This document shows positions 1,739 to 36,400 of a stretch of DNA of 64,000 bases, piece after piece. The stretch spans positions 11,675 through 75,674 of the forward strand of contig CAZMKN010000001.1 in NCBI GenBank assembly GCA_964567095.1, written 5' to 3'. The first letter of the stretch is position 1; every line of letters begins with the position of its first letter. The position numbers and the translations under genes are program-made. The stretch is from an uncultured Candidatus Saccharibacteria bacterium (GTDB lineage Bacteria; Patescibacteriota; WWE3; UBA101185; UBA10185). The notes beneath the pieces are model-generated. The model saw nothing but the letters and a program-made list of their open reading frames with translations. It had not been told where the DNA came from and did no database searches.

Positions 1739-2830
1739 ATGGCTAACGAAACTGCCCCGGCTACCCCGGACACAAAAAACTTCATCTTCGATGAGTTAGA
1801 CGCTCTTTCCAGTAAAATAGATTCCACAAAAGGGTTGCCCGAACCTTTGAAAGAGCGAATACATCAGATGCTACGCCGTTTGGATAGGATGGCTAAGCTT
1901 GGGCATTACGCCGCAGAATTTGATACTCTAGCGCGCTATATTGAGGTGATTGCATCAATCCCATGGGAGGCGGCAACAGAAGATAATCTGGATATCAACC
2001 GAGCCAAGGAAATACTTGATAGTAATCACTACGGCATGCCCATGGTAAAAGAGCGAATTTTGGAATATTTGGCGACCATGACGTTGATAAAAAGAAAAGG
2101 TGAGAATGCTATAGCCAAATCTCCGGTTTTGCTGTTGGTTGGTTTGCAGGGTGTCGGTAAAACTACACTCGCAAAGTCTGTGGCAGATACTTTAGGGAGA
2201 GATTTTGTGAGAATTTCTGTAGGAGCTATCGGATCGACCTTGGAGCTAAGGGGTACGAGTAAGACATTCCCCGGAGCCGAGCCAGGCCAGATTGTTAAGG
2301 CTTTAATAAAGACGGAGGTTCGGAATCCACTTATCTTGATGGATGAGATAGAAAAAGCTAGCGGTCAAAAAGGCCTTTTATCGGATATTATGGCGGTTTT
2401 GCTTGAGATACTGGACCCCAACCAAAATCCCGATTTCAGAGATCACTATGTTGACTATCCTGTGGATTTGTCACAAGTTCTGTTTATATGTTCGGCCAAC
2501 AATACAGGAACCTTATCAGCAGCGCTCTTAGATCGTATGGAAATTGTTAAAATGCCCTCGTATACAAACCAGGAGAAGGCAGTTATAGCGAGGGAATACT
2601 TACTTCCTAAGGTAAGGGAAAACTCTGGGTTGAAACCGGAAGAGTTGGACATTGACCCAAACCTGTGGCCTGAAATCGTTAATCCGTTTGGATATGATTC
2701 AGGTATACGAAGTCTTGGAAGAATAATGGAAAGTATGTGCAGAAAGGTGGCGAAACAGATAGTTACAGGAGAGGTATCAAGTGTATACATCACTAAGGAA
2801 AATCTTAAATTTTACATGCCCTCTTGGTAA
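1739..2830 (+). CDS. Lon-like AAA+ ATPase module lacking both the Lon N-domain and the protease domain
   Basis: Walker A LLLVGLQGVGKTTLAKSVADTLGRDFVRISVG resembles Lon (GPPGVGKTSLG...RKFVRISLGG). Lon-like linker DSNHYGMPMVKERILEYLA precedes it. The ORF stops where the Lon protease domain would begin (...ITKENLKFYMPSW*). Confidence 0.6.
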   Translation: MANETAPATPDTKNFIFDELDALSSKIDSTKGLPEPLKERIHQMLRRLDRMAKLGHYAAEFDTLARYIEVIASIPWEAATEDNLDINRAKEILDSNHYGMPMVKERILEYLATMTLIKRKGENAIAKSPVLLLVGLQGVGKTTLAKSVADTLGRDFVRISVGAIGSTLELRGTSKTFPGAEPGQIVKALIKTEVRNPLILMDEIEKASGQKGLLSDIMAVLLEILDPNQNPDFRDHYVDYPVDLSQVLFICSANNTGTLSAALLDRMEIVKMPSYTNQEKAVIAREYLLPKVRENSGLKPEELDIDPNLWPEIVNPFGYDSGIRSLGRIMESMCRKVAKQIVTGEVSSVYITKENLKFYMPSW

Positions 2831-8259: not shown

Positions 8260-8547
8260 ATGTCTACAGAAACACTAACCACAATTCTTATAGTTCTACT
8301 AAGCGTAAATTTTGTGCTTTGGATTATATTTTTAATCTTTCTTTTAGTGCAAATTCGGAAGGTCTTTAACGCTGTTCACGAAATCTTAGGTAATATCAAC
8401 GAATTTTCTTCGTCGTTTATGAGCAAAGCATTGTCGGTTCTTCCGTTGGTATTCGGAGTATTAAAAAGTTTTAAAGCTGTAAAGTCCATCACTACTTTGA
8501 GTGATGCATTTGATTCAGATTCTAAGAAGGAGAAGAAAGATGACTAA
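8260..8547 (+). CDS. small membrane protein, DUF948/YtxG-like
   Basis: N-terminal TM helix followed by an amphipathic helix. Sits immediately upstream of, and overlapping, the YtxH-like gene. Confidence 0.4.
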   Translation: MSTETLTTILIVLLSVNFVLWIIFLIFLLVQIRKVFNAVHEILGNINEFSSSFMSKALSVLPLVFGVLKSFKAVKSITTLSDAFDSDSKKEKKDD

Positions 8548-8797
8548 GGAAAGAAAGAACAGGTTTTTGTTTGGCGCGGCCTTGGGTACTTTATTTGGTT
8601 TTTTGTTTGCTCCAAAAAAGGGTAAAGAAACACGAGAGCAGCTTTCCGAGAATGTGGATAAGCTGAAAGACACGTTGGAAGGAGCTGTGGAGGAGGGTGC
8701 AAAAAAGATTTCCGAGGTGCAGGAGGAGGCTAAGCCTTACGTCGAATCCTTGAAAAAAGGACTAGAAGGAGACGGGCAAGAAGAAACAGAAGAGTAG
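8540..8797 (+). CDS. YtxH-like protein
   Basis: FGAALGTLFGFLFAPKKGKETREQL matches the YtxH-family signature. The start at ATG 8540 has an AAGGAG RBS, and its ATGA overlaps the upstream stop. Confidence 0.6.
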   Translation: MTKERKNRFLFGAALGTLFGFLFAPKKGKETREQLSENVDKLKDTLEGAVEEGAKKISEVQEEAKPYVESLKKGLEGDGQEETEE

Positions 8798-8800
8798 TTT

Positions 8801-9196
8801 ATGGTGGACACAGATATTAATAAACTTAATGATACTGATGATGTAGTGGATTCCGGAAGCATCGAAGCTGTTCGTATGCCTGCGCAAACACCTCCAGAAG
8901 CATTCCCTTTAAGGGAAAAGTTAAAGTCTGTTGAAAGTGAGAAGGCTTTGGAGGCTTTTCCGTCTCCACGACCCCCTATGCCAAAAACAAGATCGGAGTC
9001 TCTAGAGGAAGAACTTTCTGTAGGAATGGGAGAAGATGATCCTGTGAGTAAGTCGGAGGGGCGTTTGGTAGACACACGCGGGAAAGGCGACGTGTCTAAA
9101 ATCGAAACTTTAGATGAGCTAACCAAATACGGAGATCAGGAAGAAAATAAGTTCATTAAAGGTGTCAAGTCTGCCCATGGACCTAGCGAATCTTAA
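8801..9196 (+). CDS. hypothetical acidic, low-complexity protein
   Basis: The ORF shows no recognisable domain and is rich in D/E/S/P. It overlaps the start of the downstream ATPase. Confidence 0.35.
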   Translation: MVDTDINKLNDTDDVVDSGSIEAVRMPAQTPPEAFPLREKLKSVESEKALEAFPSPRPPMPKTRSESLEEELSVGMGEDDPVSKSEGRLVDTRGKGDVSKIETLDELTKYGDQEENKFIKGVKSAHGPSES

Positions 9197-11588
9197 CAAC
9201 ACTTTGTATGTAGCGTTTTGGTTATTCATTTATACTATTATCCTTATTGGGGTTGTTTTAATTCTTCTATTGCTTTTCTTTAGGCGAAAGCGCAAAAAAG
9301 TTGAAGATTTAAACAAGTTTGATTTGACTTTCCTTTTGGTTAAGCTTCCCCCTGGAAATGAAATAGAAATTGAGGTAGCCGAGCAGTTTTTTACAAGCCT
9401 TTGCGGGTTTAGGAGGTCCTGGTTTAAAGCTTTGTGGAAGGGCCAGTATAGGATTTCCTTCGAGATTGTGGCTAAATCCTCTGGGATAGGGTTTTACGTA
9501 GTGATCCCGGATGAGTTGGCTCTAGCTGTTGAGAAGAAAATAAACGGTGCTTACCCTGATGCGGAAATAGATATTGTAGATCCAAATGAAGTTTGGGATA
9601 GAGGTGACTTTACGGACGTGGCGGAAATAAAACTTTCGGGCGCTCCCTACTATCCCATTCGAACATTTGAAGACCTTGCCTCCGATGCGCTGAGTTCAAT
9701 AACGGCATCTATGGGTAAGCTATCTGACACTGATGTTATAGCGCTGCAGTACATTATTAAGCCTGCCGGAGGAGGTTGGCGCCGACAGGGGAATGCCTTT
9801 TCTGCAGGGGTTCGCAAGAGAAGTTCGGATCCGGAAAAAGGTGTCGCCATTGATACATCTTTCCTTGAAGGCGTCGAAAAAAAGATTTCTAAGCTTGGTT
9901 TTGACGTTTCCATAAGGGTTGTTTCAATTGCTGAAAACAAGAGTATAGCTAAAGATCATATCCAAAACGTTGTCACGGCATTTGATCAGTTTACAAATGT
10001 AAAATATAACAAATTTAAAAAAGTTAATCCTAAGGCGCGACGCACTGTTACAAATTTCATTTACCGCAGCCTACCCCTTTTTAATTTAAGCGTTCCTATT
10101 TTGGATATTTCGCTTTTTCGTAACGTTTCAACCCTAAATACACAGGAGATGGCGACAATTTTTCACTTTCCTACCGGAGAAGTAAAAACTCCGGGAATAA
10201 TTTGGCTCCGAGCTCACAAAGCCCCATGTCCGGAAAACATTCCAACGGAAGGACTCTACCTTGGTAAGAATGTGTATCGTGGTATGGAAAAAAATGTACA
10301 CATGCTCGAAAAAGATCGTACACGACATTTTTACATTATTGGACAAACGGGTACCGGAAAATCCGAGTTTATGAAAACCTTGGCTCTGCAGGACATAGAA
10401 AACGGCGAGGGTTTAGCTTTTATCGATCCTCACGGAAGTGATATAGACGATATTTTGGAAAAAATCCCGGAACATAGGGCAGATGATGTTATCTTGTTTG
10501 ATGCCTCTGATGTTGAGCGCCCTTTAGGTCTTAATATTCTAGAAGCCCATTCCGGAGAGGAAAAGCACATGATTATTAATTCTTTCATCGCATTGCTGTA
10601 TAAGCTTTACGATCCAAATAGGCAGGGAATTATGGGTCCTCAACTAGAGCGTGCGATCAGAAACGTTATGTTAACGGCTATGGTTGATCCGGATAGTACT
10701 ATGGTGGATGTTTTGCGTTTATTAATTGACGATAAATATGCCCAAAGTTTCTTGCCTAAATTAGACGATCCGTTGGTTAGGCGTTACTGGACCGATGAAA
10801 TGGCTAACACAAGCGACTATCACAAGAGTGAGAAAATGGGTTATTTTGTTTCTAAATTTGACCGTTTTGTAACGGATAAAACTATGCGCAATATTTTGGG
10901 TCAGCCTCGCTCAGCGATAGATTTCCCCAGGATAATGGCGGAGAAAAAGATTCTGTTGGTGGATTTGTCTAAAGGGAAGATAGGGGAGGAAAACTCCAGC
11001 TTTATAGGGCTAATTTTGGTTCCAAGGATTTTACAGGCTGCTATGGGGCGGGCCTCAAGGCTTGGTAAAGAGGATTTCCCGAATTTTTATCTGTATGTCG
11101 ATGAGTTCCAAAACTTCGCAACCCCCGATTTTGCTACCATTCTTTCCGAAGCCCGTAAGTACAAGCTTAACTTGGTGGTTGCACATCAGTTTATTTCTCA
11201 GCTAACCGATGAAATAAAAGAAGCTGTTTTTGGGAATGTCGGTACTACAGCTGTTTTCAGGGTAGGGGCCGAGGACGCCGAATTCATAGAGAAGCAATTT
11301 GATCCGGTTTTTACTCAAAGTGATTTGATTAATCTGCCTATTGGAAGTTACTACACTCGGATTTTGATAGAAGGTCACCCTAGCCCACCCTTTTCTATGA
11401 AGGTTGATTGGGATATGGTGAACGAAGATAACGCAAAAAAGAATCAAGAACTCGCTCAAAAAATTCGGGAACATTCGAGAAATACCTATGGCGTGGCTCG
11501 AGCTGAAGTTGAGAAATATATAAATGAGCGCTCCAACTTTAACCCGGTTGTGGAGGTTCCTGCTTCTGGAAAGAAAATACCTTTTTAA
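9162..11588 (+). CDS. membrane-anchored P-loop ATPase of the VirB4/VirD4 (FtsK-HerA, AAA-like DUF87/TraG-D_C) superfamily
   Basis: N-terminal TM helix, then a ~350 aa domain. Walker A IIGQTGTGKSEFMKT...FIDPHGSD, Walker B LYVDEFQNF, and a downstream RKYKLNLVVAHQFISQL typical of T4SS ATPases/coupling proteins. 808 aa. Confidence 0.6.
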   Translation: MSSLPMDLANLNNTLYVAFWLFIYTIILIGVVLILLLLFFRRKRKKVEDLNKFDLTFLLVKLPPGNEIEIEVAEQFFTSLCGFRRSWFKALWKGQYRISFEIVAKSSGIGFYVVIPDELALAVEKKINGAYPDAEIDIVDPNEVWDRGDFTDVAEIKLSGAPYYPIRTFEDLASDALSSITASMGKLSDTDVIALQYIIKPAGGGWRRQGNAFSAGVRKRSSDPEKGVAIDTSFLEGVEKKISKLGFDVSIRVVSIAENKSIAKDHIQNVVTAFDQFTNVKYNKFKKVNPKARRTVTNFIYRSLPLFNLSVPILDISLFRNVSTLNTQEMATIFHFPTGEVKTPGIIWLRAHKAPCPENIPTEGLYLGKNVYRGMEKNVHMLEKDRTRHFYIIGQTGTGKSEFMKTLALQDIENGEGLAFIDPHGSDIDDILEKIPEHRADDVILFDASDVERPLGLNILEAHSGEEKHMIINSFIALLYKLYDPNRQGIMGPQLERAIRNVMLTAMVDPDSTMVDVLRLLIDDKYAQSFLPKLDDPLVRRYWTDEMANTSDYHKSEKMGYFVSKFDRFVTDKTMRNILGQPRSAIDFPRIMAEKKILLVDLSKGKIGEENSSFIGLILVPRILQAAMGRASRLGKEDFPNFYLYVDEFQNFATPDFATILSEARKYKLNLVVAHQFISQLTDEIKEAVFGNVGTTAVFRVGAEDAEFIEKQFDPVFTQSDLINLPIGSYYTRILIEGHPSPPFSMKVDWDMVNEDNAKKNQELAQKIREHSRNTYGVARAEVEKYINERSNFNPVVEVPASGKKIPF

Positions 11589-11648
11589 ACAAGGTCCACC
11601 CTCTATGAGGACAGTCCCCTCAAAGGACAGCCCCCGTTTAATGTATAA

Positions 11649-12887
11649 TTGAAACAAATGTTAAGCCTGCCCTTTCTTAATCTTAAAAAGTCGAAAGATC
11701 TTGAAAACTCCTTTTTGGGCATCACCTTTGACTCTCTTCGAGTAAATGTAGTTTACTTTGAGATTTCTTCTGATGAATTAAATCCGATAGTTCAGGTCAA
11801 GTGCATTATTTCCCGTTTCATTGGGGAGAAAGTAGAAAACCTTTTCAAGGAATATTCAGATGACGCAGCTCTTATAGAAACGTTACGCGTGATTTTGACC
11901 GAACTTAGTGAAAAATTTCCTGATGTTTCAAATCAAGTAATATTTGGGCTTTCTGCTGACAAATGTATTGATTTAATGTCTATTGTTAGCCTGGAAAACT
12001 CTGTGAGACGGCGTTTTACAGAAGAACAGGTAGCAGAGCTTGATGAGCAAGCTTACAAAAACGCGTCTTTTAGGGCGCAAGATGCGCTCGCAACTCAAAC
12101 GGGCGATATGGAAAGTGATCTTGATCTCGTCACTTCGGTGGATGTTTTCAAAAAATTAGACGGGATAGTTACACGAGATCCTATTGGATTAGAGGGGGAA
12201 AAACTCGAACAAGCTTGGTTTGGAAGTTTTGTTCGACGAGCAGATCTCGAGAGGTTTAAGCAGATTGCCAAGAAACTTAATTTGAAAATACTAACTGTCT
12301 CATCGCTAAACTACGCTTTTTATACTTGTTTAACTCAACATGACCCAAAATATTCCAATTGTATTGTTGTGAATCTAGATAATGACTTAACGCAAGTTTC
12401 GGCGGCTTTCGGAGGTAGTATAGTAGGTTCTCGCTTCATAAATATAGGTTTGGTTTCCGTGCTTAACGAAATCAGCTCGCGGATGGGATTGTATCCTGAT
12501 GAAGCTTTAGAGGTCTTGGAAAAGTACAGGCAGGGAACTCTAGACTCATCATTGGCGCAGAGGGTCCAAAAGATTATCTATAGGTTTTTCGTGATTTGGT
12601 CGAAAGCGTTAGGTGAAGTGTTTTCCGACTTTAGTGGGATCAAGACTTTTTCGTCAAATGTAGTTTTGGTTGGTCCGGGATTTGACTTACCTGATCTGCA
12701 TATGTTCACTTCAAGCGAGCCTTGGTTTAAATCGATACCATTTAAGGCGCCTCCAAACTTTGAAAAGGGTCTCGCATCGGATAAAATAACTAAAGTTTCT
12801 GATTTAACAGGGAAAGCTTCCCTTTCAGCGTGGAGTCTGCCAATATCATTGTCAGGCGTCTACGTAAGAATGAAGGATACCTCGTAA
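11649..12887 (+). CDS. degenerate PilM/FtsA-like actin-fold protein
   Basis: Phosphate-1-like LGITFDSLRVNVVYFEI, phosphate-2-like IVVNLDNDLTQVSAAFGGSIVGSRFINIGL, and a C-terminal VVLVGPGFDLPDL resembling the PilM 'LtGGga' motif. Catalytic D/G positions are substituted. Confidence 0.4.
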   Translation: MKQMLSLPFLNLKKSKDLENSFLGITFDSLRVNVVYFEISSDELNPIVQVKCIISRFIGEKVENLFKEYSDDAALIETLRVILTELSEKFPDVSNQVIFGLSADKCIDLMSIVSLENSVRRRFTEEQVAELDEQAYKNASFRAQDALATQTGDMESDLDLVTSVDVFKKLDGIVTRDPIGLEGEKLEQAWFGSFVRRADLERFKQIAKKLNLKILTVSSLNYAFYTCLTQHDPKYSNCIVVNLDNDLTQVSAAFGGSIVGSRFINIGLVSVLNEISSRMGLYPDEALEVLEKYRQGTLDSSLAQRVQKIIYRFFVIWSKALGEVFSDFSGIKTFSSNVVLVGPGFDLPDLHMFTSSEPWFKSIPFKAPPNFEKGLASDKITKVSDLTGKASLSAWSLPISLSGVYVRMKDTS

Positions 12888-14437
12888 TGGTTTATACAGT
12901 GAATAAAACAAAGGATATCTATACAATACTAGCAGAACTTGCTGTTCGAGCGGAAAAAGATTTGGAAATTTTCATACCGTCTGGATCGTTGCTCTTGAAG
13001 GATAAATTGAACCTAGAATTTTTGGCTAAAAGTTTAGAGAAATTGGGCAAGACTGCTAGGTTTGGTACAGATGACCCGAATGGCAAAGAACTTTTGGATA
13101 GTCTTAACTTGGCTAGAGCAGAATTTGGTAGTACCTTAGACGCTGGTGCCTCCGGTGAAAGATCCCATCGTATGTTTCCGCGAAAACTTAAATTTTTCGT
13201 GTCAAATACCTTCTCGCGCCTGAAAGACCTATCTAAACTGAAAAAGCCGAACATTTCACTAAGGATAAACCTCGCATTATTAGGGGCCTTCATTCTGGTT
13301 CTCGCGGGATTGATTTACGGAGGTTACCGTTACATTTCCTCTCAAAAGGCTTACATAAAAATTTACACAAAATCAGAGCCCTTAGCTAGAAGTATTACTA
13401 TTAGGGTTGATTCCAACAGTAGCACTAATATAGATGAGAAAATATTGGAAGGTACGGATATTTCCACGAGTATTTTTGACACGAAGGAAATCGAAACGAC
13501 GGGAGAGAAAGAAAAGGGCGATTATGCTGAAGGAGAGATCATAATTTATAATTACACTAAGGAGGAGATTAAATTAGATGAGGGAGAAAAAGTTTATTTT
13601 AAGGATGATGATTTAGAATTCAAGCTCACGGATGATGTAACTGTAGATCCAGCAACTTACGAGGTACAGGAAGACCCTCCTGTAACACCTGGGGAAACGA
13701 AGGCCTCTGTCAAAGCCTTGGAATATGGGGATGATTACAATATTGGAGGAAGCAAGACTTTGAAATTTGATGATTACGATGATTTCGATTTAACAGCTAA
13801 ATCCAAAAATAAATTTGAGGGTGGAAAAACGGAAACCGTTATGGTGGTTTCCGAGGAAGACATTGAAAAGCTAAAAGAGGATATAGCAACCATTTTAACA
13901 GTACAGTCAACCCAAGCGATAAATGATGTTGTCCCATCGGATTACAAACTGATTAAAGGTTCTATAACCACTCTCTTAGGAGATCCTGAGTTAAGTGCGG
14001 AGGTTGGGGAAGAGGAGACTGAGGTGAATATAAAGCAGGTGCTGACCGTATTTGGTTTAGCCTATTCCGAAAAGAAACTGGATCAGCTCATTATGAAGGT
14101 TGTTGGCGACTATGTCCCGGAGGAATATGCTCTCGCAGGTACTAAGCACACGTTAAGCGTTGAAGTATTGGGGGCTACTGAGGATACAGTTCTTAGTGAC
14201 AGCGCCGCGGATCTTCAGGTTACAGTTAAAACATCCGTGATTCCGGAAATAAACATCAGTTCTTTAAAAGAATCCCTGAAAGGTATGTCCGTGGGAGAGT
14301 TGCAGAGGGAGTTAGGAGGTATGTCAAATATAACAACATATGAGTTTAATTTATCGCCGATTGTTCCATTGAAGAAAAAAGTACCCAATGACGTAGAAAA
14401 AATCTTAATTGAGGTTCTAGAGGGCTCTAATGACTAA
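12887..14437 (+). CDS. bitopic membrane protein with a large acidic extracytoplasmic domain
   Basis: ATG at 12887 overlaps the upstream stop (TAATG). One TM helix (LALLGAFILVLAGLIYGGY) sits ~145 aa in, followed by a D/E/T-rich domain. Confidence 0.5.
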   Translation: MVYTVNKTKDIYTILAELAVRAEKDLEIFIPSGSLLLKDKLNLEFLAKSLEKLGKTARFGTDDPNGKELLDSLNLARAEFGSTLDAGASGERSHRMFPRKLKFFVSNTFSRLKDLSKLKKPNISLRINLALLGAFILVLAGLIYGGYRYISSQKAYIKIYTKSEPLARSITIRVDSNSSTNIDEKILEGTDISTSIFDTKEIETTGEKEKGDYAEGEIIIYNYTKEEIKLDEGEKVYFKDDDLEFKLTDDVTVDPATYEVQEDPPVTPGETKASVKALEYGDDYNIGGSKTLKFDDYDDFDLTAKSKNKFEGGKTETVMVVSEEDIEKLKEDIATILTVQSTQAINDVVPSDYKLIKGSITTLLGDPELSAEVGEEETEVNIKQVLTVFGLAYSEKKLDQLIMKVVGDYVPEEYALAGTKHTLSVEVLGATEDTVLSDSAADLQVTVKTSVIPEINISSLKESLKGMSVGELQRELGGMSNITTYEFNLSPIVPLKKKVPNDVEKILIEVLEGSND

Positions 14438-14843
14438 AGAAAAGGGTATTCTGGGTATAGATTATGGCGAAACTAACATAGGATTGGCATTTGGTAGAGC
14501 AGGAGAGGTTTTACCGCTAAAGATTATTTCCGGAAAAAACCCACATACCGCAATTTCTGTGATTGGTCGTACTATTATTGAGTATGATGCTAAAACCATA
14601 ATTGTAGGACTTCCATTAACAATGGAAAACAAAGAAACACCGAAATCTCTTAAAGTACGTAGGTTCGTTAAATTATTGAAAGTCAAAATAAAAAAACCCG
14701 TTGTTTTTGTAAACGAGCACTCGACATCTAAAGACGCTACTAAAATAATGTTAAGCATGGGCGTTTCACAAAAACGTAGGCGCTTGAAAGATCATTACTC
14801 TGCCGCATTAATTTTGAAAAAATACTATAGAGAAAAAGAGTAA
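14430..14843 (+). CDS. ruvX: Holliday-junction resolvase-like RuvX/YqgF (pre-16S rRNA nuclease)
   Basis: ILGIDYGETNIGLAFG...IIVGLPLTMENKETPKSLKVRRFV matches RuvX/YqgF. Size 137 aa. Confidence 0.8.
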   Translation: MTKEKGILGIDYGETNIGLAFGRAGEVLPLKIISGKNPHTAISVIGRTIIEYDAKTIIVGLPLTMENKETPKSLKVRRFVKLLKVKIKKPVVFVNEHSTSKDATKIMLSMGVSQKRRRLKDHYSAALILKKYYREKE

Positions 14844-14846
14844 CCG

Positions 14847-15128
14847 TTACTCTTCTTTTTTGCTTTCATCAAACGTTAATTTCACATTTTTATTTCCACA
14901 CTTCATGCATTGAAAGTTTTCCCCGGGGGTTAGGCATTGCGGACACATATAAACCCCCTCTTTGTAGATAAGTTTATCGCTTTCGCACACATTGCAGGTA
15001 AAAATTACATCATCTTGAGTTATAACTTCACAATCTGGACACGTGAACATCGCGCTTGGACTTCCTAGAACTTCCTCCTCTTCGCTCGTTTCTTTTTCTA
15101 GTTCTTTTAGGACTTTGATTTTTACCAT
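14847..15128 (-). CDS. zinc-ribbon protein with four CxxC pairs
   Basis: CPDCE...CNVCE...CPQC...CMKCG spacing fits a zinc ribbon. Confidence 0.45.
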   Translation of the reverse strand: MVKIKVLKELEKETSEEEEVLGSPSAMFTCPDCEVITQDDVIFTCNVCESDKLIYKEGVYMCPQCLTPGENFQCMKCGNKNVKLTFDESKKEE

Positions 15129-21014: not shown

Positions 21015-21431
21015 AGAGACCTCCAAGAGTTCTTTTGTAATATAAATCCCCTCTCTTTTTAGTATTTTTTTGTCGATTTTCATAGGGATATTTAGCAGTT
21101 GGGACGTGATAAATCCATGGTAAAAAGATGTTGTGATTTTTTTAGCCATAAATTTTGGTTTCGTTTTTATTATTGTGTTGTATTTTTGATCTTTTTCTTT
21201 TTGTAGAATTATCCCGGATATGTTTGAGATCTCCACACGCTTAACGAAGTTATAATTTATGGACCGGTCTTTTTGGCGTTCGTTATTTTTAATTACAAAA
21301 TCCACAATTTTATTATCTACCTTTAGGAAAAATATTTGTTTGGTGCTTTTGCAGAAGAAATAGGCATTAAAGACTATTACGTCCTCGTGTATCGACGGAA
21401 CAATAGCAAGAAACTTAATTCTTTTGAGCAT
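21000..21431 (-). CDS. hypothetical protein (K/I/N-rich)
   Basis: The ORF shows no recognisable domain and lies in an AT-rich region. Confidence 0.25.
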   Translation of the reverse strand: MLKRIKFLAIVPSIHEDVIVFNAYFFCKSTKQIFFLKVDNKIVDFVIKNNERQKDRSINYNFVKRVEISNISGIILQKEKDQKYNTIIKTKPKFMAKKITTSFYHGFITSQLLNIPMKIDKKILKREGIYITKELLEVSLAQV

Positions 21432-21485
21432 GAAACAATCTTACAAAATAACTATTAAGATTATATTAAATTTCGTTGTGAGATT

Positions 21486-23330
21486 TTAAATTCCGGCCCT
21501 TTTTTCCTTAATATAGTCTCTCCAACCCTCCAACAGTTCAATGAATGTAGAAAAAGGTGTGTCGACGAGTGTTGAAAAAAAGACACTAATGAAGTTGAAC
21601 TCTTTCCACTTGGATGAAAGCCAGCTTCCCATCTTCGCTAAAGGTATAGAGAAGAAATCAAGTATAAATTCAAATATACTGGTTCTTTCTTTTATGGTTA
21701 GTTCCTTAGACTTTTGTCGAATAACCATAGCGGCGAAAACTACAATCGCCACATTTACCGTGTCGATGTAAAGTGATGTTAAGGGCACTCGAGCGATTTT
21801 AAATATCCTGTAGATAAAAAACAAAGATGCTACTCCACCAAGAAGGTAAATTACTCCAAATATGAAGTTCTGGACCTTCTTGACTTTTTTGTTCAGCTTC
21901 ATTTTATATGTAATTTCTTCTTCGGTAATGTAAACTATTTTTTCTATCTCTTCTTTTACTTTAGGTAGATTATCCTCTGCTGGAGGTCTGATTATTCCCA
22001 CTAGAATGAACATAAGTGCTGTGGGAATCATAATATCGGCTACAATTGCCCAGGGAGAAAATCCCCCATAAAAAAGCTTTGCGATTGGAAATTCAAAAAC
22101 AAAAAGGCTTGCGGCTCCTGCTACAAATATCGAAAGAGTCGAGTATACGGCACTTCTAAATAAACGTTTCTTTAAAGTTGAGAACCTTTTTTTGTAAACT
22201 TTTTCTATTAGTTTGTGAAGATTTTCCTTTTTAGCTAGTTCTTCCTCCAAATTTTCGTTATCTTCTACGTCCTTTAATACATCTGATAGTATTAGAAACG
22301 CAGCATCGTATTTTTCACAAATATTTTGGAACCCGCCTCTTTTTGGATGTTTTAACTCTTCCTTTATGTTATTCCAAATGTTTTCTATATTGTCAGTGAA
22401 CTCTTCTGTAAAAATCTGCGTATTATCTACAAAAAGTGGGTACTTATTTTTTAATACATGATAGGTGATTACGGGTTCGTCTAAATTAAAGAGCATTTTG
22501 TGTACTGCTATGTAGGTTTGAATGTATTTTTCCTCTTCAGATAGGGCTCCTTCAGGAATAATCTTGATTCTTTGAGTCATTGTTTCTGTCATGAAATTTA
22601 ACAGGGCATCCTCTTTGTATGGGTAGTCTAGCGTTTCCTCTATCTCACAGGCGGCTATTTCTAGAATCCAGTTATAGAAATGAACTTTAACTTTTATGGC
22701 CAGGGCGTTTTCTTTTGCGTACGGGCTGTTTTTTAATATGTAGATGTATTTATCCAATATTTTGGCTACGGCAGTGATTTTATCCTCTGAGATTTTTCCG
22801 TTCTCAAAATATCCGGTGCGTATTATTTCAAGAGTTACTGGTCCCGCAATTTCCTTAGGTTTTAAATCCGGCAGCATCGTAATTTCCGATATCTCCGATA
22901 TTAATCTGCGTTTAAGTATTCTCTCAATGGATGTTCTTCTAACTAAGTTTTCTTCTTTCCAGTCGATAACTCTACGAACTTTTTCGTAGACCTTAGCTAT
23001 TTTTGTAGCGATTTCGTCAACATAGATTGCGTTGTCGGGGGTTTTCTTTTTGATTTTTACGCCTTGTTTGTATTGCTCAAGATATGGAAATATGGCGGGA
23101 TTAAATATTTCTCGATCGGCACTCTCTGCCCATTCATTTTCCTCTTGCTGCTCGTCCGATTTTTGATTTTCACTTGTGTCGGCTATTTGTGAGGGTATCC
23201 GAGATATAGTACTTTCATTGTGCACCCGCTCTTCTAGCGGAGACTCTTTTGGAAACTGCATTTTAGTCTTCTCCGTTTCATCTTTGCTTTTTTGGTTAAG
23301 GTAAATTACTCCTTTCATATCAGCAGACAT
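21486..23330 (-). CDS. hypothetical membrane protein (614 aa; soluble N-half, four or more C-terminal TM helices)
   Basis: Long ORF whose C-terminal hydrophobic helices flank charged loops. No recognisable motif. Confidence 0.5.
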   Translation of the reverse strand: MSADMKGVIYLNQKSKDETEKTKMQFPKESPLEERVHNESTISRIPSQIADTSENQKSDEQQEENEWAESADREIFNPAIFPYLEQYKQGVKIKKKTPDNAIYVDEIATKIAKVYEKVRRVIDWKEENLVRRTSIERILKRRLISEISEITMLPDLKPKEIAGPVTLEIIRTGYFENGKISEDKITAVAKILDKYIYILKNSPYAKENALAIKVKVHFYNWILEIAACEIEETLDYPYKEDALLNFMTETMTQRIKIIPEGALSEEEKYIQTYIAVHKMLFNLDEPVITYHVLKNKYPLFVDNTQIFTEEFTDNIENIWNNIKEELKHPKRGGFQNICEKYDAAFLILSDVLKDVEDNENLEEELAKKENLHKLIEKVYKKRFSTLKKRLFRSAVYSTLSIFVAGAASLFVFEFPIAKLFYGGFSPWAIVADIMIPTALMFILVGIIRPPAEDNLPKVKEEIEKIVYITEEEITYKMKLNKKVKKVQNFIFGVIYLLGGVASLFFIYRIFKIARVPLTSLYIDTVNVAIVVFAAMVIRQKSKELTIKERTSIFEFILDFFSIPLAKMGSWLSSKWKEFNFISVFFSTLVDTPFSTFIELLEGWRDYIKEKRAGI

Positions 23331-23446
23331 TATAACTTATTATAGGGTGTTTTTCGACTTCATGTTGGACAAACCCAGGACAGTCTTGGTTTAAATGGAC
23401 ACAGTTTAGACAGCATGTTTTGAGACTCGTTCACTCACACAATTTT

Positions 23447-24961
23447 TTAATATTTAAAGACCTTCTCAGAGATCCTGAATTTTTCAATGATCGCGCTATT
23501 CTCATCGTTATTTTTGACCAAAATAATTGTGTAATCATCTACATATATTGGTGACCAGCTCGTATCTTTTATCCTTTCGATTAGAAAGGGCTGCGCCCAG
23601 GGAGTTGCATCGTGTCTATAAAAGTAGATGGTCTGGAAGTTGTAGGTTTTGTCCCATTGTTTCCACGTTTCCTCATTCTCTTGTATTTTAATGTAGGTGT
23701 TCTTTAGAAAATCTACGCTATATGCCTCCGGTCGATTGTCTACAAAAACTTTTTGTTCTGGATATAAGTGGTATATTAAATATCCTCCAATGTCGTAATT
23801 GTTGAATATTGGGCCTTTTAAGCTGTTTTCCTTGAAAAATTCTGCGGAGTTATTGTTGTTTGGTAGCACGCCCATCCCAGTTTGTGTGTCAAAGGGGGAG
23901 TAGTAGAAGTTTTTTGTAAATATTCCTAACAAACCTAATCCTATGGAAAAAAGATACACCGTCTGCCCGTTTTTATCTGGAAGTCTTGGTATCCTTGCAA
24001 AAAAAGGTATAGCAAAAAACCCAAATAGCGGGATTATCCTGATCATCTTAAATCCGAGAATGGCAAAAGTTATTGTAGGAATAACAAAAATGACCCTTTC
24101 CTTAAATGATTTTTCTTTAACGAAAAATGCAATAAGAACCGGTACTAGAAGTAGCATGACTTCATAGTGGACATATAAGAACTTGGGAAATCTTCTCTGC
24201 ATGAATAAGACAGACTGGTTTTCCACTATCATATACCCGTATTCTCTAAAGATCATGAAAGGTTCTACTAAGCCTTTAAATCCGTATGGATTTATTAAAC
24301 ATATTAGTGTGGACAGGAAAATTATTATTGATATCTGTCTTACATACTCACTATCTTTTTGGTTTATTAATCCGTCTAACCAAAAAATACCGATCAGAAA
24401 TAATCCGAATATGAAAAATATATGTAAATTTACCCATAGGAGCTGTAATCCTAAAATTAATGGGAGTACAAATCTGAACTTGAGTTGTTTTTTGCGAAAT
24501 TTGTAGAGTGCGAAAAATAAAATTCCAAGGAAAAGGTAGCTAAAACCTTCCGGTCGGATCTCAGTTCTACTCACAATAAGTGGAATAGTCAGAATAGATA
24601 CGATGGTGGCTTTTTTTATTGATGTTTCTTCCTTTGCAATAAGAAAGAATAGGACTATTGGTATGGCGTTAATAAATGCATAAAAAATCGATAGGCCTGT
24701 GAAACCTACCCAACCATGTACTTTTGCAAATATTATTCCTGAAGCCCAATGATGGTTTATAGTTTTGTTTTCAGGTTCAGTATATGAGTAGAAGTTGGTA
24801 GAGATTATTTGCTTGGTTGCTAATGTGATTTGGCCGTTTTTTATATGTCGTCCAAGGTCGGCAGTTGTTAGGTTTATTTTCTTAGCAAAGAAAAAGAAGC
24901 TGTAGAGAAAAATAAATGTTGTTAAAACTAACGCGACGACTTTATCCTCCATTTTGATCAT
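23447..24961 (-). CDS. polytopic membrane protein, GT-C-like (ArnT/PMT-type) with a C-terminal soluble domain
   Basis: About 11 TM helices and then a ~140 aa soluble C-terminus. The start is probably at MIKMEDKVV... (24961), not the listed 25012, because an intergenic repeat occupies 24994-25062. Confidence 0.4.
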   Translation of the reverse strand: MIKMEDKVVALVLTTFIFLYSFFFFAKKINLTTADLGRHIKNGQITLATKQIISTNFYSYTEPENKTINHHWASGIIFAKVHGWVGFTGLSIFYAFINAIPIVLFFLIAKEETSIKKATIVSILTIPLIVSRTEIRPEGFSYLFLGILFFALYKFRKKQLKFRFVLPLILGLQLLWVNLHIFFIFGLFLIGIFWLDGLINQKDSEYVRQISIIIFLSTLICLINPYGFKGLVEPFMIFREYGYMIVENQSVLFMQRRFPKFLYVHYEVMLLLVPVLIAFFVKEKSFKERVIFVIPTITFAILGFKMIRIIPLFGFFAIPFFARIPRLPDKNGQTVYLFSIGLGLLGIFTKNFYYSPFDTQTGMGVLPNNNNSAEFFKENSLKGPIFNNYDIGGYLIYHLYPEQKVFVDNRPEAYSVDFLKNTYIKIQENEETWKQWDKTYNFQTIYFYRHDATPWAQPFLIERIKDTSWSPIYVDDYTIILVKNNDENSAIIEKFRISEKVFKY

Positions 24962-24993
24962 GGAGAAATTATAACAGGGCGAAAAGCAGCAAT

Positions 24994-25062
24994 GGTCGAG
25001 CACGTCGGTCATGAAATTTCAGAAAATGTTGTACGATACTCGGCTTCTCTAGGATACATGGT
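24994..25062. repeat. intergenic repeat copy A (GGTCGAG-N6-GGTCATGAAATTT...)
   Basis: GGTCGAGCACGTCGGTCATGAAATTTCAGAAAATGTTGTACGATAC... is ~70% identical over ~70 nt to the copy at 26011. Confidence 0.6.
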
Positions 25063-25065
25063 TGA

Positions 25066-25983
25066 TTATAGCGAACCATGTTTACATCTTTTTAGTGCCT
25101 TTAATATATCAAGTATAGAGTCAGAAATATTGCCCTCCTGAAGATTTTCAAAAAATGTGGTTATAAATAGCATGCCTCTATTTTTTTCCAACTCCAAACC
25201 CTTTTCTATTTCATAATTATCAAAGACACGCTCACTTATAAACCCAATATGTACAGCCCTAATTAAATGTTCCTCGAAGCAAATTCGCCAATTATTGTAT
25301 GCTTTCGGATATTTCGGATGTTGTTTTGCCTCTTCAAGTAAATTTTCGATTTCATCAATATCTTTTCTATAAGGTTTTAATACTTCCTTTGCAATTGGAT
25401 GAGAACCTTCATGAATAATAGCGTGAAGTAGTGCTCGTTTGTTAATTTCCCCCATAACACCTACTACTTGGTAATTAATGTTTCCAATCTGTGGTCCAAA
25501 GCTTCCGTGGGTAAATGGGTTTGGAATTACGACCATTTCATTTTTTACTTTCTTTCCCCATACTCTTTCTAACATTTCCTCAACATTTGCTTGTGAAATA
25601 ATTTGTTCCATTTCTTTTTTTATAGCTTCAAGGGAAATTTCTAGTTCCTTATAATAAGTTTTAAAATCAGTTTTATTGTAGAAATCAACTAAATAGGGTT
25701 TAATAATTTTACCTTTATCAATATGCCAGTGAAGTTCCGAGGATATCTCAACATTTCTCGGTTCAAATTCTGGAGGTTTACCAACGGTTAGTGACCAAAC
25801 CACCACCTTGTGCTCATGAATATATTCACCTACTTTTGGTGCATTTCCCATATAATCTTTGAAATGATTTTTTACCTGTTCTTGTAATGGGTGGGTGTTT
25901 GAATCTCCACCTGCCTGGTCAAATCTATTTAGAAATGAGTAGAGAAGTGTGAGATTTTCATTGGTTTCAACTCGTATACTCAT
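25066..25983 (-). CDS. putative zinc metallopeptidase-like protein (HExxH)
   Basis: AIIHEGSHPI contains HExxH. Otherwise no recognisable domain. Confidence 0.4.
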   Translation of the reverse strand: MSIRVETNENLTLLYSFLNRFDQAGGDSNTHPLQEQVKNHFKDYMGNAPKVGEYIHEHKVVVWSLTVGKPPEFEPRNVEISSELHWHIDKGKIIKPYLVDFYNKTDFKTYYKELEISLEAIKKEMEQIISQANVEEMLERVWGKKVKNEMVVIPNPFTHGSFGPQIGNINYQVVGVMGEINKRALLHAIIHEGSHPIAKEVLKPYRKDIDEIENLLEEAKQHPKYPKAYNNWRICFEEHLIRAVHIGFISERVFDNYEIEKGLELEKNRGMLFITTFFENLQEGNISDSILDILKALKRCKHGSL

Positions 25984-26010
25984 ATGGTAATAATAACAAA
26001 GTAGACTTGG

Positions 26011-26097
26011 TTGAGTACGTTGGTATTGAAATTTCTGGAAATGTTATTCCATACATGGTTTCTCCAGGCTATATGGTCGAGAAGGAGCGATGAATCT
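26011..26097. repeat. intergenic repeat copy B plus partial B'
   Basis: GGTTGAGTACGTTGGTATTGAAATTTCTGGAAATGTT...CATACATGGTTTCTCCAGGCTATATGGTCGAGAAGGAGCGATGAAT, with a second GGTCGAG start at 26077. Confidence 0.6.
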
Positions 26098-26371
26098 TGA
26101 ACAGCTTTTACCACTTGCAGAATCTATATTTGAGAATTGGAATACAGAAAAGTTTGATGAGAGTTTGTTAGTTCCAGTAGGTATGGGTATGAAATATGCG
26201 GCTTCCTACAAGTATTAGCTTTGAAAACAAAAACAACTCCATAGGGAGTTGTTCATAATGGAAGCGAGTCTCTTGATGATTCTTCATCATTGTAGGCGCC
26301 CAATCGTGCCTCGTTATTCGATGCTAAAAGCACCTATATTCGCTTGATAAGTAAATTGTATCATATGAAAA

Positions 26372-26387
26372 TGGTCGGGGTGACAGG
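26372..26387. repeat. att-like direct repeat matching the 3' end of tRNA-Pro (15/16 nt)
   Basis: TGGTCGGGGTGACAGG here versus TGGTCGGGGTGACTGG at 36254-36269, which is the acceptor/T-arm 3' end of the minus-strand tRNA. Confidence 0.5.
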
Positions 26388-26549
26388 CAATACCGTCGCT
26401 ACGCTCCTGTTGCATCCACAACTACTAAGTTCACTAAGTATTGTGTAGACTCTTTCTCGCATGTCACACAAACAAGAAAAATGCCCACATCCATCTTTGA
26501 CGGATCTGTACACTTTTCTGGTCGACCATAGTAACTAGTGTTCGCAGCT

Positions 26550-26750
26550 TTATTTAGTAAATATTCCTATACAGGCGTGTTGCTCTAACTTTCCTGGATT
26601 TGTGGGATTTTTGTAGACCTTTGTAACGATTCTTATCCCCATGCAATTTTCTATCACGCCTCCGGCATCATGTCTGTTGAATAGGAACAATCCAAGTGCC
26701 GTAATTACTACTAATATGCTGAATGCAATGAAAATCGACTTTGTGTTCAT
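26550..26750 (-). CDS. small hydrophobic protein (66 aa)
   Basis: Single predicted TM helix. The call is weak. Confidence 0.25.
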   Translation of the reverse strand: MNTKSIFIAFSILVVITALGLFLFNRHDAGGVIENCMGIRIVTKVYKNPTNPGKLEQHACIGIFTK

Positions 26751-26802
26751 AACTATATATTATCAAAAAAACATGGTTTGCCATAGCTGACCACATTTGT
26801 AA

Positions 26803-26985
26803 CTATTTCTTGGGAGTAAAGAAGTAACTTATTGCACAAAATCCAAACCCGAACAGTTCTATTATTAGTATAAATAACAAACTAGTATGACCTGAAACAA
26901 CAAAATAACCGGAAATCAGGGTTAAAAAACCAAAGAAGCTCATGAGATTTCTTGATAATAATTTACTCACGTTGTAATTGTACAA
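26803..26985 (-). CDS. small hydrophobic protein (60 aa)
   Basis: Two predicted TM helices. The call is weak. Confidence 0.25.
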   Translation of the reverse strand: MYNYNVSKLLSRNLMSFFGFLTLISGYFVVSGHTSLLFILIIELFGFGFCAISYFFTPKK

Positions 26986-26994
26986 AATTTTCCT

Positions 26995-27040
26995 GGTCGA
27001 GAAGTACGGTCATGAAATATTATTCTCTTCAGGATGTAAA
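26995..27040. repeat. intergenic repeat copy C
   Basis: GGTCGAGAAGTACGGTCATGAAATATTATTCTC. It lies immediately upstream (in minus-strand sense) of the small 60-aa ORF at 26803-26985. Confidence 0.55.
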
Positions 27041-27117
27041 TAAGACAAACGAGACACTACAGGAAACTTTTTCTAGGTATATCTTGCTATATTTTTTCAG
27101 CGAAAGCTTGGCTTATT

Positions 27118-27558
27118 CTAAACTTCAAGAATGGTCTTTAAGTTTTCAAGCATCTGACGTGTTGTGTTTTGGGCAATTTTATTAATTATTAGTTTGTTCG
27201 TTATTCTTTGTAATGCGGTTTCCGAAAGTTCATAGTCGATTTGAACTTTTACTTCTGTACTGCCATTATCTGTCGAAGTTAACTCGTAGGTCCATGTTGA
27301 GTCAGCGTCTCCTTTTGAGGAAATCACGACTTTAGTTGGAGCTGTATATTCTATAACCTCAGCTTTTCCTCTAAGGTCGCTTCCAGCCATGTTAAATCGC
27401 CAATCAAATTTTTGACCAACACCGTCTTGTTCAGGGAAGATATTGGTATTCTCGTTTAAATTAGGTACGAAAGCTGGGCCATTATACGGGGATGCCATAT
27501 AGGTAAAAACTTCGTTTAACGGTTTATTAATAGTAGTTTTTGATGAAACTGTAGTCAT
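27118..27558 (-). CDS. SRPBCC (Bet v1-like / polyketide cyclase-like) small-ligand-binding protein
   Basis: At 146 aa, its secondary-structure pattern and size fit the SRPBCC/Polyketide_cyc2 fold. Confidence 0.4.
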   Translation of the reverse strand: MTTVSSKTTINKPLNEVFTYMASPYNGPAFVPNLNENTNIFPEQDGVGQKFDWRFNMAGSDLRGKAEVIEYTAPTKVVISSKGDADSTWTYELTSTDNGSTEVKVQIDYELSETALQRITNKLIINKIAQNTTRQMLENLKTILEV

Positions 27559-27608
27559 TTTTGTGTTCCTTAAAATAATTACGCTTACTATTTGAGTTTA
27601 TCACAAAA

Positions 27609-28064
27609 TTAAAGTAGATAATTTTGGATGAACTTTCTGAATACTTCCTTGGTGATGAGCACTCTTTTCGAATATTTCTTTGTACTAAATATAACTAGGT
27701 TTAATTTTCTACATAATTTATATGATTTTATTTTTGTACTGCTATCGATTAAGTGGACATCAGCTAAATGTTCCACGGGGGATCTTGTTATATTGGAAGC
27801 CTTTTCAAGAGCTTCGAATATATGTATTGTTGTTATTCCATACACTAACCACATTTCAGTAGTAAAGAAAAGCATTGCTATTAGGATTGCTATGGCTAAA
27901 GACCAGACGCCAAAAGATGGAAAGCTGATTAAACTTAAGGATACACCAAGTGCAGTCAAACCTCGTTGTCTAACTAGTATTGGCCTGTTTTTGTGTAAGG
28001 GTAATACAAAATAATAAGCTGCTAATGTAATCACGCCTACACATGCAAAATAGAAAACTACCAT
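27609..28064 (-). CDS. small membrane protein (151 aa, ~4 TM)
   Basis: Hydrophobic ORF that is co-oriented with, and tightly spaced to, the lipid operon. Confidence 0.4.
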   Translation of the reverse strand: MVVFYFACVGVITLAAYYFVLPLHKNRPILVRQRGLTALGVSLSLISFPSFGVWSLAIAILIAMLFFTTEMWLVYGITTIHIFEALEKASNITRSPVEHLADVHLIDSSTKIKSYKLCRKLNLVIFSTKKYSKRVLITKEVFRKFIQNYLL

Positions 28065-28088
28065 AATATTATTCTATGTTACTTTGTT

Positions 28089-31358: not shown

Positions 31359-31360
31359 GT

Positions 31361-32446: not shown

Positions 32447-32469
32447 AAATAGATAATATCATTCGTGTT

Positions 32470-34283: not shown

Positions 34284-34284
34284 A

Positions 34285-36332: not shown

Positions 36333-36400
36333 TCAACAGAAGGGATTATATCATAGTAAGATCCTTGACTCTTTCGGTATTTCTTCGTATAATCATTCCA

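Follow-up and report, generated by a model that had tools for sequence, protein, structure and literature searches.

In a 64,000-nt stretch of contig CAZMKN010000001.1 (assembly GCA_964567095.1), from an uncultured, ultra-small Candidatus Saccharibacteria bacterium of the GTDB lineage WWE3, a membrane-anchored ATPase resembling type IV coupling proteins (T4CPs) is encoded directly upstream of a gene pair for an actin-fold protein and a bitopic membrane protein. This whole stretch is referred to as the window. An earlier note on the same DNA had taken the three proteins for one minimal, uncharacterised module of membrane translocation, DNA uptake or cell-surface assembly. We favour instead, in an evenly balanced judgement, two separately evolving units that stand side by side in a WWE3 synteny block and possibly cooperate. 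Unit A (8801-11588) would comprise the ATPase and, translationally coupled to it, a small acidic protein that is largely disordered; unit B (11658-14437) would comprise an actin-fold protein of the FtsA/PilM family translationally coupled to the bitopic protein. Two units are preferred over one machine because the ATPase occurs phylum-wide without the pair, because the link between them is broken in about a quarter of the WWE3-type loci, and because the whole block is syntenic.

The ATPase is conserved independently of the actin-like/bitopic pair

A phylum scan with one genome per species yielded 80 ATPase loci from WWE3, Microgenomates, Dojkabacteria, Parcubacteria groups, Saccharibacteria and others, and metagenomes scanned with the actin-like protein as seed added 63 further loci. 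Iterative hidden Markov model (HMM) searches of the 80 genome loci found the actin-like and bitopic proteins in WWE3 loci alone (L002, L003 and the window), and the pair was absent beside the ATPase from the 75 non-WWE3 loci. Co-conservation of the three genes, which the earlier note had put forward as a test of its module, was thus seen as a gene order kept across WWE3-type loci but not in the other 75 of the 80 Patescibacteria loci, and a phylum-wide three-gene module is ruled out. Outside WWE3, the genes downstream of the ATPase vary by lineage, and all-versus-all clustering of neighbours revealed no downstream partner shared across lineages; the lineage-specific contexts include XerC/D with an FtsB-like gene, DnaX, GyrB and RNR (identities read from the sequences). 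Across the phylum, the ATPase is clearly independent of unit B.

Within WWE3, the pair itself holds together: the bitopic gene adjoins the actin-like gene in 57 of 58 informative loci, mostly overlapping it, and RuvX lies downstream in all loci whose sequence reaches that far. The ATPase stands directly upstream of the pair on the same strand in 32 of 49 loci and within about 3 kb, separated by one or two inserted genes, in another 11; it was not seen upstream in the remaining six. Two of these six (L138 and L140) offer more than 5 kb of upstream sequence (5-7 kb) and carry the pair without the ATPase, with AlaS adjoining the pair. The insertions consist of an AlaS-like gene, a gene for a protein of 670-896 amino acids without Pfam match, or two minus-strand open reading frames (ORFs). 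The 670-896-residue protein, encoded on the same strand and with a charged Glu-rich N-terminus (L083, 1862-4537; L085, 1415-3427; L098, 4293-6953; L102, 3127-5817), may be an additional lineage-specific component. A short AlaS-like gene (450-500 codons) adjoins the actin-like gene on its upstream side in L101 (1121-2509), L104 (5353-6705), L135 (5375-6778), L138 (5498-6991) and L140 (3640-5115); from this position, the pair appears to be wedged into a widespread alaS-ruvX...mltG arrangement.

Unrelated neighbours are just as firmly fixed. A HAD hydrolase lies downstream in 29 of 29 WWE3-type loci, and YtxH lies upstream of the ATPase in 23 of 24 and is absent from the other Patescibacteria loci; the gene for a weakly DUF948-like protein of 95 residues occupies the upstream position in only 9 of 24. 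Since HAD and YtxH are equally fixed, adjacency is not specific evidence of a common function, and the region is a case of WWE3 block synteny. Its proteins evolve at strongly differing rates: compared with the window proteins in the same loci, the ATPase is 57-65% identical, RuvX 45-55%, the bitopic protein 31-37% and the actin-like protein 25-32%. Together with the inserted genes, the two loci that have the pair without the ATPase, and the absence of fusions, these rates speak for the independence of the two units. The linkage persists in L135, even though its ATPase is only 43% identical.

The ATPase is an orphan T4CP homologue with a DUF8128 domain

The N-terminal transmembrane (TM) helix and the nucleotide-binding motifs quoted in the earlier note were all located, the motifs at residues 389 (Walker A), 416 (IDPHG), 641 (VDEFQNF) and 660 (RKYKLNLVVAHQFISQL), numbered from ATG 9177. 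Across 20 diverse homologues, down to 33% identity, G389, G392, G394 and K395 are invariant, as are D642, E643, R660, K661, Q671 and Q675. The TM helix is directly followed by RRKRKK, and by the positive-inside rule the remainder of the protein is therefore predicted to be cytoplasmic. Walker A and Walker B are 251 residues apart, compared with 102 in the FtsK encoded in the window, a spacing that would fit an all-alpha insert of the T4CP type.

Profile searches gave a consistent picture. The ATPase passes the Pfam cut-offs of TraG-D_C (PF12696; 28.2 versus 22) and DUF87 (PF01935; 27.1 versus 23.2) and just misses that of PF10412 (TrwB_AAD_bind; 20.3 versus 20.5, with the P-loop region alone covered), which some homologues reach; PF02534, another family that the earlier note had proposed to search, gave no match in the Pfam scan. 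The best solved relatives in a PDB profile search are DotL (7e-7) and TrwB (1e-6), and the best NCBIfam matches are TraD, a VirD4-like family, TrbC, CedD, VirB4 and CedB, all far under the family cut-offs. On these motifs and profiles, the P-loop domain is intact and falls on the VirD4/T4CP side of the FtsK-HerA clade. The earlier placement in a VirB4/VirD4 superfamily accordingly stands for the clade and for the VirD4/TraD branch (Pfam, NCBIfam, TrwB/DotL) but not for the VirB4 side.

The region between the TM helix and the P-loop domain is assigned to PF26449, named DUF8128, from the annotations of homologues, including the 99%-identical P0001. PF26449, PF01935 and PF12696 occur together in P0001 and in essentially all of the best 120 homologues, and the gene tables of L082 and L083 show the same set. 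With its N-terminal TM helix and length, the window protein conforms to a Patescibacteria family of about 800 residues with the architecture DUF8128 + DUF87 + TraG-D_C, for which 5412 cluster representatives (50% identity) were counted at E<=1e-30. A profile of the DUF8128 domain retrieved nothing meaningful from PDB or Pfam, and our literature search found no mention of it. Long homologues carry TPR or unannotated extensions, and none of them was seen fused to PilM or Baseplate_J domains.

The protein thus shares with T4CPs such as TrwB, VirD4, TraD and DotL/IcmO the N-terminal membrane anchor, a nucleotide-binding domain with Walker A, IDPxG, a DEF Walker B and an RK...HQ block that aligns to TrwB, and a stretch of about 250 residues between the Walker motifs, which would have the right size for an all-alpha insert. 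It differs from them in having one TM helix instead of the usual two, in its DUF8128 domain of about 300 residues, which classical T4CPs lack, and in falling far below the curated whole-protein cut-offs (TIGR03743, TIGR03754, TIGR02759 and NF045973: 49.4 versus 366, 29.8 versus 647, 15.7 versus 521 and 42 versus 250 bits). Moreover, its gene is a chromosomal, vertically conserved core gene with no type IV secretion system (T4SS) or relaxase nearby in the 64-kb window. A likeness also exists to the Ced DNA import system of Sulfolobales, where a membrane-associated ATPase of the VirB4/HerA/T4CP type works without a canonical T4SS, and weak matches to CedD (1.4e-5) and CedB (1.3e-4) were obtained. 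However, these matches are limited to the P-loop region, CedA-type membrane proteins are lacking and the organisms belong to another domain of life.

Orphan VirD4-like T4CP homologues have already been reported from Patescibacteria (Quinonero-Coronel et al. 2025, PMC12102498), so the family of the window ATPase is already known. That survey counted 5713 T4CP homologues in 2918 of 3035 genomes (about 96%, with roughly two copies per genome), of which 148 lie near virB4, and found VirB4 in 2417 genomes and almost no relaxases; in S. epibionticum, the T4CP homologue is dispensable although the T4SS is essential, and exaptation of the orphan homologues was proposed as a possibility (PMC12102498). 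The window ATPase is from the same phylum, is of the same protein kind and likewise lies away from virB4, and we regard it as one of these orphan homologues: of known kind and uncharacterised. In contrast to the present analysis, the survey does not analyse the DUF8128 domain or the t4cp neighbourhoods and does not mention PilM-like or bitopic neighbours or a small upstream gene (PMC12102498). As a separate observation, L046, L058 and L073, which are Parcubacteria- or Saccharibacteria-type loci, each encode two DUF8128-type ATPase paralogues no more than a few kb apart, consistent with the published figure of about two homologues per genome.

A small upstream gene is the sole phylum-wide neighbour of the ATPase

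The 131-residue protein encoded just ahead of the ATPase is acidic (isoelectric point (pI) 4.58, 22% Asp plus Glu) and has no family match in Pfam, NCBIfam or PADLOC scans; its WWE3 counterparts have in common a C-terminal acidic motif of the type ITSLAD-EE--FI--V---H. In 56 of 75 informative Patescibacteria genome loci, the ATPase is preceded, at a distance of no more than 150 nt, by a small ORF of the same strand that often overlaps it, and the 131-residue gene is the positional counterpart of these genes. When clustered, the upstream proteins are about 100-200 residues long and of low complexity with a short conserved C-terminus. Alignment of the lineage-specific clusters with hhalign gave no homology except between C12 and C28, which rules out a single conserved family of upstream partners; it is the position alone that is conserved. 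The sole phylum-wide neighbour of the ATPase is a small, fast-evolving, disordered upstream protein.

The actin-like protein has an FtsA/PilM fold and a decayed ATP site

The AlphaFold2 (AF2) model of the actin-like protein (pLDDT 83.7, pTM 0.84) agrees with the degenerate PilM/FtsA-like actin fold that the earlier note had proposed. Foldseek matched the model to structures of FtsA and PilM with E-values from 3e-19 to 8e-15 (TM-scores 0.56-0.74), ranking FtsA first (E 3e-19, TM-score 0.62-0.67) and EutJ, DnaK and ParM well behind. A strand-helix-strand-strand insert at residues 103-193 of the model matches the 1C/SHS2 subdomain, and the prediction of an FtsA/PilM fold with a 1C-type insert can be made with confidence.

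The window protein has no Pfam match at E<=0.1, misses TIGR01175 (PilM; 13.9 versus 133 bits) and has TIGR01174 ftsA as its best NCBIfam match (E 3e-6), at 26.4 bits versus a cut-off of 175.85. Its orthologues, however, pass the Pfam cut-offs of PilM_2 (47.4 versus 27) and FtsA alike. PF11104 (PilM_2), named in the earlier note for checking, is thus reached by orthologues only, among them those in L081, L083 and L104.

The phosphate-binding residues are replaced, as the earlier note had also stated: the window protein reads ITFDS and NLDNDLT at phosphate-1 and phosphate-2, where orthologues have IDIGS and DVGxDxT. In an alignment with S. aureus FtsA, the phosphate-2 Asp aligns with an Asn that all members of the close clade share. 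Deeper WWE3 positional orthologues retain canonical IDIGS, DxGxDxT and GGG motifs, and the motifs are lost in different ways in several WWE3 sub-lineages, including that of the window. The ATP site of the window protein has decayed, as have, independently, those of other sub-lineages. Ahead of the first strand, orthologues conserve an N-terminal peptide M-x-x-LPFL (window 11658-11690), which AF2 models at low confidence and which may be a docking motif.

The bitopic partner carries a Baseplate_J-type ectodomain

The single-pass membrane protein with an outer domain of about 370 Asp/Glu-rich residues, described in the earlier note, is confirmed by sequence and AF2 model (pLDDT 82.9). Its topology is N-in: a folded 78-residue cytoplasmic domain is followed by a basic disordered linker, the TM helix (residues 125-151) and an ectodomain of 365 residues (20.5% Asp plus Glu, pI 4.36). 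Foldseek supports a Baseplate_J/GlxA-type barrel in this ectodomain, and a bitopic orthologue passes the Pfam cut-off of Baseplate_J (PF04865). The barrel is of the same type as in the baseplate J/gp6/gp47 wedge proteins of contractile injection systems and in GlxA, but here it forms the ectodomain of a cellular bitopic protein among housekeeping genes; neither the window nor the related loci with gene tables contain tail, sheath or tube genes. Neither the window protein nor five orthologues gave a PilN or PilO signal, PF05137 included. A literature search for Baseplate_J in the candidate phyla radiation (CPR) found nothing relevant.

The cytoplasmic FtsA/PilM-fold gene directly ahead of a bitopic gene recalls PilM-PilN(-PilO) and GspL-GspE, as does the passing of PilM_2 by orthologues. 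The cytoplasmic domain of GspL is non-catalytic, and the decay of the nucleotide site in the actin-like protein resembles it. Unlike PilN and PilO with their ferredoxin-like domain, however, the partner in the window combines a folded cytoplasmic domain with the large Baseplate_J-type ectodomain, no PilB/GspE-type ATPase, platform protein or pilin is encoded nearby, and the neighbouring ATPase belongs to another branch of its superfamily. FtsA is an equally good structural match with its 1C/SHS2-type insert, and orthologues pass the Pfam FtsA model; on the other hand, the gene has no ftsZ/ftsQ context, the ATP site is lost, TIGR01174 is missed by far, and the downstream bitopic protein is unrelated to FtsN or FtsQ.

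Locus layout and genomic setting

The ORFs lie on the plus strand where the earlier note had placed them (Table 1), in seven closely packed genes that span 8260-14843 according to the ORF list and a check of the junctions. The lengths of 808, 412 and 535 residues given before had been counted from upstream GTG/TTG codons; the three genes are real, but their ATG starts, favoured by homologue lengths and N-terminal conservation, give 803, 409 and 516. Likewise, the TAATG coupling that had been assigned to the ATPase/actin-like junction does exist, but at the actin-like/bitopic junction (12885-12889), where the bitopic ATG shares a base with the actin-like TAA. The 95-residue gene overlaps the YtxH gene by 8 nt, 3 nt separate the latter from the 131-residue gene, whose 3' end overlaps the ATPase start by 20 nt, and RuvX overlaps the bitopic gene by 8 nt.

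Table 1. Positions of genes, domains and motifs in the window.
Feature	Position	Strand	Basis
Small membrane protein, 95 residues, weakly DUF948-like	8260..8547	+	One TM helix; PF06103 E 0.02, under cut-off
YtxH-family protein, 85 residues from ATG 8540	8540..8797	+	PF12732 E 1.6e-17, 64.1 bits versus cut-off 37.5
Acidic low-complexity protein, 131 residues	8801..9196	+	No family match
T4CP-like membrane-anchored ATPase, 803 residues (TM + DUF8128 + DUF87/TraG-D_C)	9177..11588	+	Pfam, NCBIfam
N-terminal TM helix of ATPase, about residues 12-36	9210..9284	+	Hydropathy scan, sequence
DUF8128 domain of ATPase, about residues 45-345	9309..10211	+	Precomputed PF26449 on homologues
Walker A GQTGTGKS, residue 389	10341..10364	+	Aligns to TrwB P-loop
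Walker B (YVDEFQN) and RKYKLNLVVAHQFISQL sensor block	11094..11204	+	Aligns to TrwB 275-324
Spacer between ATPase and actin-like genes, 69 nt	11589..11657		Sequence
FtsA/PilM-family actin-fold protein, predicted, 409 residues, ATG 11658	11658..12887	+	AF2, Foldseek
Bitopic membrane protein, 516 residues	12887..14437	+	AF2; start overlaps actin-like stop
Cytoplasmic beta-alpha-beta-alpha-beta-alpha domain, residues 1-78	12887..13120	+	AF2
TM helix of bitopic protein, residues 125-151	13259..13339	+	AF2, hydropathy, sequence
Acidic ectodomain, Baseplate_J/GlxA-type beta-barrel then alpha/beta repeats	13340..14434	+	AF2, Foldseek
RuvX/YqgF	14430..14843	+	PF03652 E 2.6e-29

The ATPase and actin-like genes, in contrast, are separated by the 69-nt spacer, which carries a direct repeat (GGACAGTCCCC/GGACAGCCCCC) as well as a perfect TATAAT that ends 10 nt ahead of the actin-like ATG. 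No obvious Shine-Dalgarno sequence was seen ahead of this ATG, and the promoter/terminator scan placed no plus-strand terminator-like site in the spacer. Promoter- and terminator-like sites in the scanned region are no more frequent than in shuffled sequence, and operon limits can therefore not be set from the sequence. Rfam detected no RNA family in the region.

The nearest relatives of the window proteins are from candidate division WWE3 (Patescibacteria/CPR). As to the flanking genes, RuvX was correctly placed after the block, and of the YtxG/YtxH-like pair said to precede it, YtxH is well supported and the DUF948 protein, which we take to be the YtxG-like half, is a weak match. Upstream, the surroundings are of housekeeping character (PNPase, an AAA+ Lon-like protein, UDG, RNase J, FtsK and a RodZ-like protein); downstream follow HAD, MiaB, MiaA, an AI-2E transporter and MltG, and beyond them RpoB/C and ribosomal genes. 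A zinc-ribbon-type protein of 93 residues with four CxxC pairs is encoded convergently to RuvX (window 14847-15128, minus strand) and recurs at this position in 18 of 29 WWE3-type loci. A gene-family scan of every ORF of at least 110 residues in the 64-kb window gave no match to VirB4, VirB6 or VirB8 families, to PilB/C/T-type families or pilins, or to relaxase families, in line with the earlier statement that VirB6/VirB8 and PilB/PilC partners are missing; FtsZ and FtsQ are likewise absent from the window.

Other features of the window

Several features outside the block deserve mention. A low-GC block on the minus strand (window 21400-35900; GC 0.32-0.37, versus about 0.40-0.43 elsewhere) is bordered by tRNA-Pro(GGG) at 36254-36332 and contains two large ORFs without Pfam match, DUF4932, an SRPBCC protein, a UbiA prenyltransferase, an AMP-binding enzyme, a formyltransferase-like protein, DUF3419, an NAD_binding_4 reductase and a PEP-utiliser mobile-domain protein. 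Lying beside a tRNA, this block resembles an acquired island of lipid or secondary-metabolite type, unusual in a metabolically minimal CPR genome. Adjoining the tRNA at the island border is a gene for a 310-residue protein with the homing-endonuclease-associated HNH_repeat (36365-37297, plus strand).

An NpmA/KamB-type 16S rRNA m1A1408 methyltransferase, of the aminoglycoside-resistance type, is encoded in this WWE3 chromosome at 40101-40742 (minus strand; PF24675 E 1e-56). The Lon-like AAA+ protein (AAA + Lon_lid, 363 residues; 1739-2830, plus strand) has no detected protease domain. Ribosomal protein L3 (60765-61199, plus strand) is only 144 residues long, whereas a typical bacterial L3 has about 210; its normal-looking N-terminus suggests that the usual loop or extension has been lost through an internal deletion.

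Discussion

By analogy with T4CP biology, the ATPase would form a hexamer tethered to the membrane and act as an NTP-driven translocase or substrate receptor; since each subunit contributes one TM helix, it would require some other membrane channel. The actin-like protein would dock on the cytoplasmic part of its bitopic partner, as in PilM-PilN, FtsA-FtsN and GspL, and the docked proteins could form a transmembrane scaffold. Because its ATP site has decayed repeatedly, the actin-like protein would be a structural adaptor and not an enzyme. We infer hexamer formation, this docking and any contact between unit A and unit B from these parallels. That unit B recruits unit A in WWE3 is a real possibility, albeit the less probable outcome.

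Some points weigh against a division into two units. What joins the small protein to the ATPase as unit A is only gene position. In addition, the ATPase stays upstream of the pair, directly or within 3 kb, in 43 of 49 loci while identity of the actin-like protein has fallen to about 25%, a persistence likewise compatible with a common machine, and actin-like proteins of the PilM/GspL type are known adaptors of hexameric secretion ATPases.

The principal alternative is a single machine, in which the actin-like protein tethers a T4CP-like hexamer to the bitopic protein, whose ectodomain spans the wall, for WWE3-specific translocation, DNA uptake or surface assembly. We consider it possible but doubtful. 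The genes are co-oriented and closely packed, with a gap that lacks a terminator-like site, and the ATPase remains near the pair across deep divergence, as in L135. PilM/GspL adaptors bind secretion ATPases, and the conserved LPFL peptide could serve docking. Yet the known partners of PilM and GspL are PilB/GspE-type ATPases and not members of the FtsK/HerA clade; the ATPase is found phylum-wide without the pair; block synteny, with its equally fixed HAD and YtxH genes, explains the adjacency as well; AlaS or other genes are inserted in 11 of 49 loci; the pair can occur with no ATPase nearby; and no gene fusions were seen. More specifically, and more tentatively still, one may imagine that a decayed PilM/FtsA-type adaptor recruits the DUF8128 ATPase to a wall-crossing Baseplate_J bitopic protein and so forms a hitherto undescribed, minimal envelope-spanning device for translocation or for DNA or protein uptake.

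A further reading concerns unit A only and is compatible with two units: the ATPase could be the true coupling protein, encoded in trans, of the VirB4-type T4SS on Patescibacteria chromosomes. Its closest relatives among solved and curated proteins are T4CPs, T4CP genes are often distant from virB4 (PMC12102498), and the T4SS cluster of S. epibionticum is without a recognisable coupling protein (PMC10633639). We nevertheless judge this unlikely, given that T4CP homologues occur in more genomes than VirB4 (2918 versus 2417), that the homologue is dispensable in S. epibionticum while the T4SS is essential, that relaxases are almost absent in the phylum, and that one TM helix and the novel DUF8128 domain replace the usual T4CP N-terminus.

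For the pair, a PilM plus PilN/O-equivalent of a WWE3 type IV pilus (T4P), encoded away from pilB/pilC and with the ATPase as an unrelated neighbour, would explain why orthologues pass PilM_2 and why the gene order mirrors pilM-pilN. T4P genes including PilM are indeed widespread in CPR (10.1101/335083; PMC11623550). In cultivated Saccharibacteria, however, pilM/N/O lie inside T4P loci (PMC11623550), and pilB/C/T and pilin genes are absent from the 64 kb and from related loci with gene tables. Orthologues of the actin-like protein match FtsA equally well, and the bitopic protein gives no PilN/PilO signal, has an ectodomain three to four times the size of PilN/PilO with a Baseplate_J-type barrel, and begins with a folded 78-residue domain where a short INLLP peptide would be expected. 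This explanation seems quite improbable.

Very improbable, in our view, is that the pair is a scaffold of the divisome or cell wall, comparable to FtsA-FtsN/FtsQ or MreB-RodZ, and the ATPase a second FtsK-like DNA pump at division. Foldseek and NCBIfam do rank FtsA/ftsA first, FtsK, a RodZ-like protein and MltG are neighbours, the pair is wedged into the alaS-ruvX...mltG arrangement, and elsewhere the ATPase lies near an XerC/D-like recombinase with an FtsB-like gene, DnaX or GyrB, as far as can be read from the sequences. But in the small, mostly housekeeping genomes of Patescibacteria such neighbours are expected by chance, and, as far as the flanks reach, the linkage to FtsK and the RodZ-like protein (1 of 24 loci) does not recur in the rest of WWE3. 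The score for ftsA lies well under its cut-off (26 versus 176), ftsZ and ftsQ are absent from the window, and a genuine FtsK is already present. Finally, a defence system was rejected: the match to mad8 (E 1.4e-17) and the weak HerA matches cover the P-loop domain alone, the three neighbour proteins have no PADLOC match and the ATPase is a conserved chromosomal core gene.

We thus return to two units in a WWE3 block. The DUF8128 ATPase is among the most conserved uncharacterised proteins of Patescibacteria, within WWE3-type loci more conserved than RuvX, and the essential T4SS of the sole genetically tractable species does not require it. WWE3 supplies a natural candidate set of partners for it, an actin-like adaptor and a Baseplate_J-type bitopic protein; for the Baseplate_J fold on a cellular bitopic protein and for its lineage-specific adjacency to an orphan T4CP, we found no earlier description in the searchable literature. 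If the two units do work together, WWE3 would provide the first case of a PilM-type adaptor paired with a motor of the FtsK/HerA clade, a first functional clue to the orphan T4CP of Patescibacteria, and a new type of envelope machine in organisms reliant on exchange with host cells. If they do not, the pair would still be an undescribed PilM-like transmembrane scaffold that displays a phage-baseplate fold on the cell surface.

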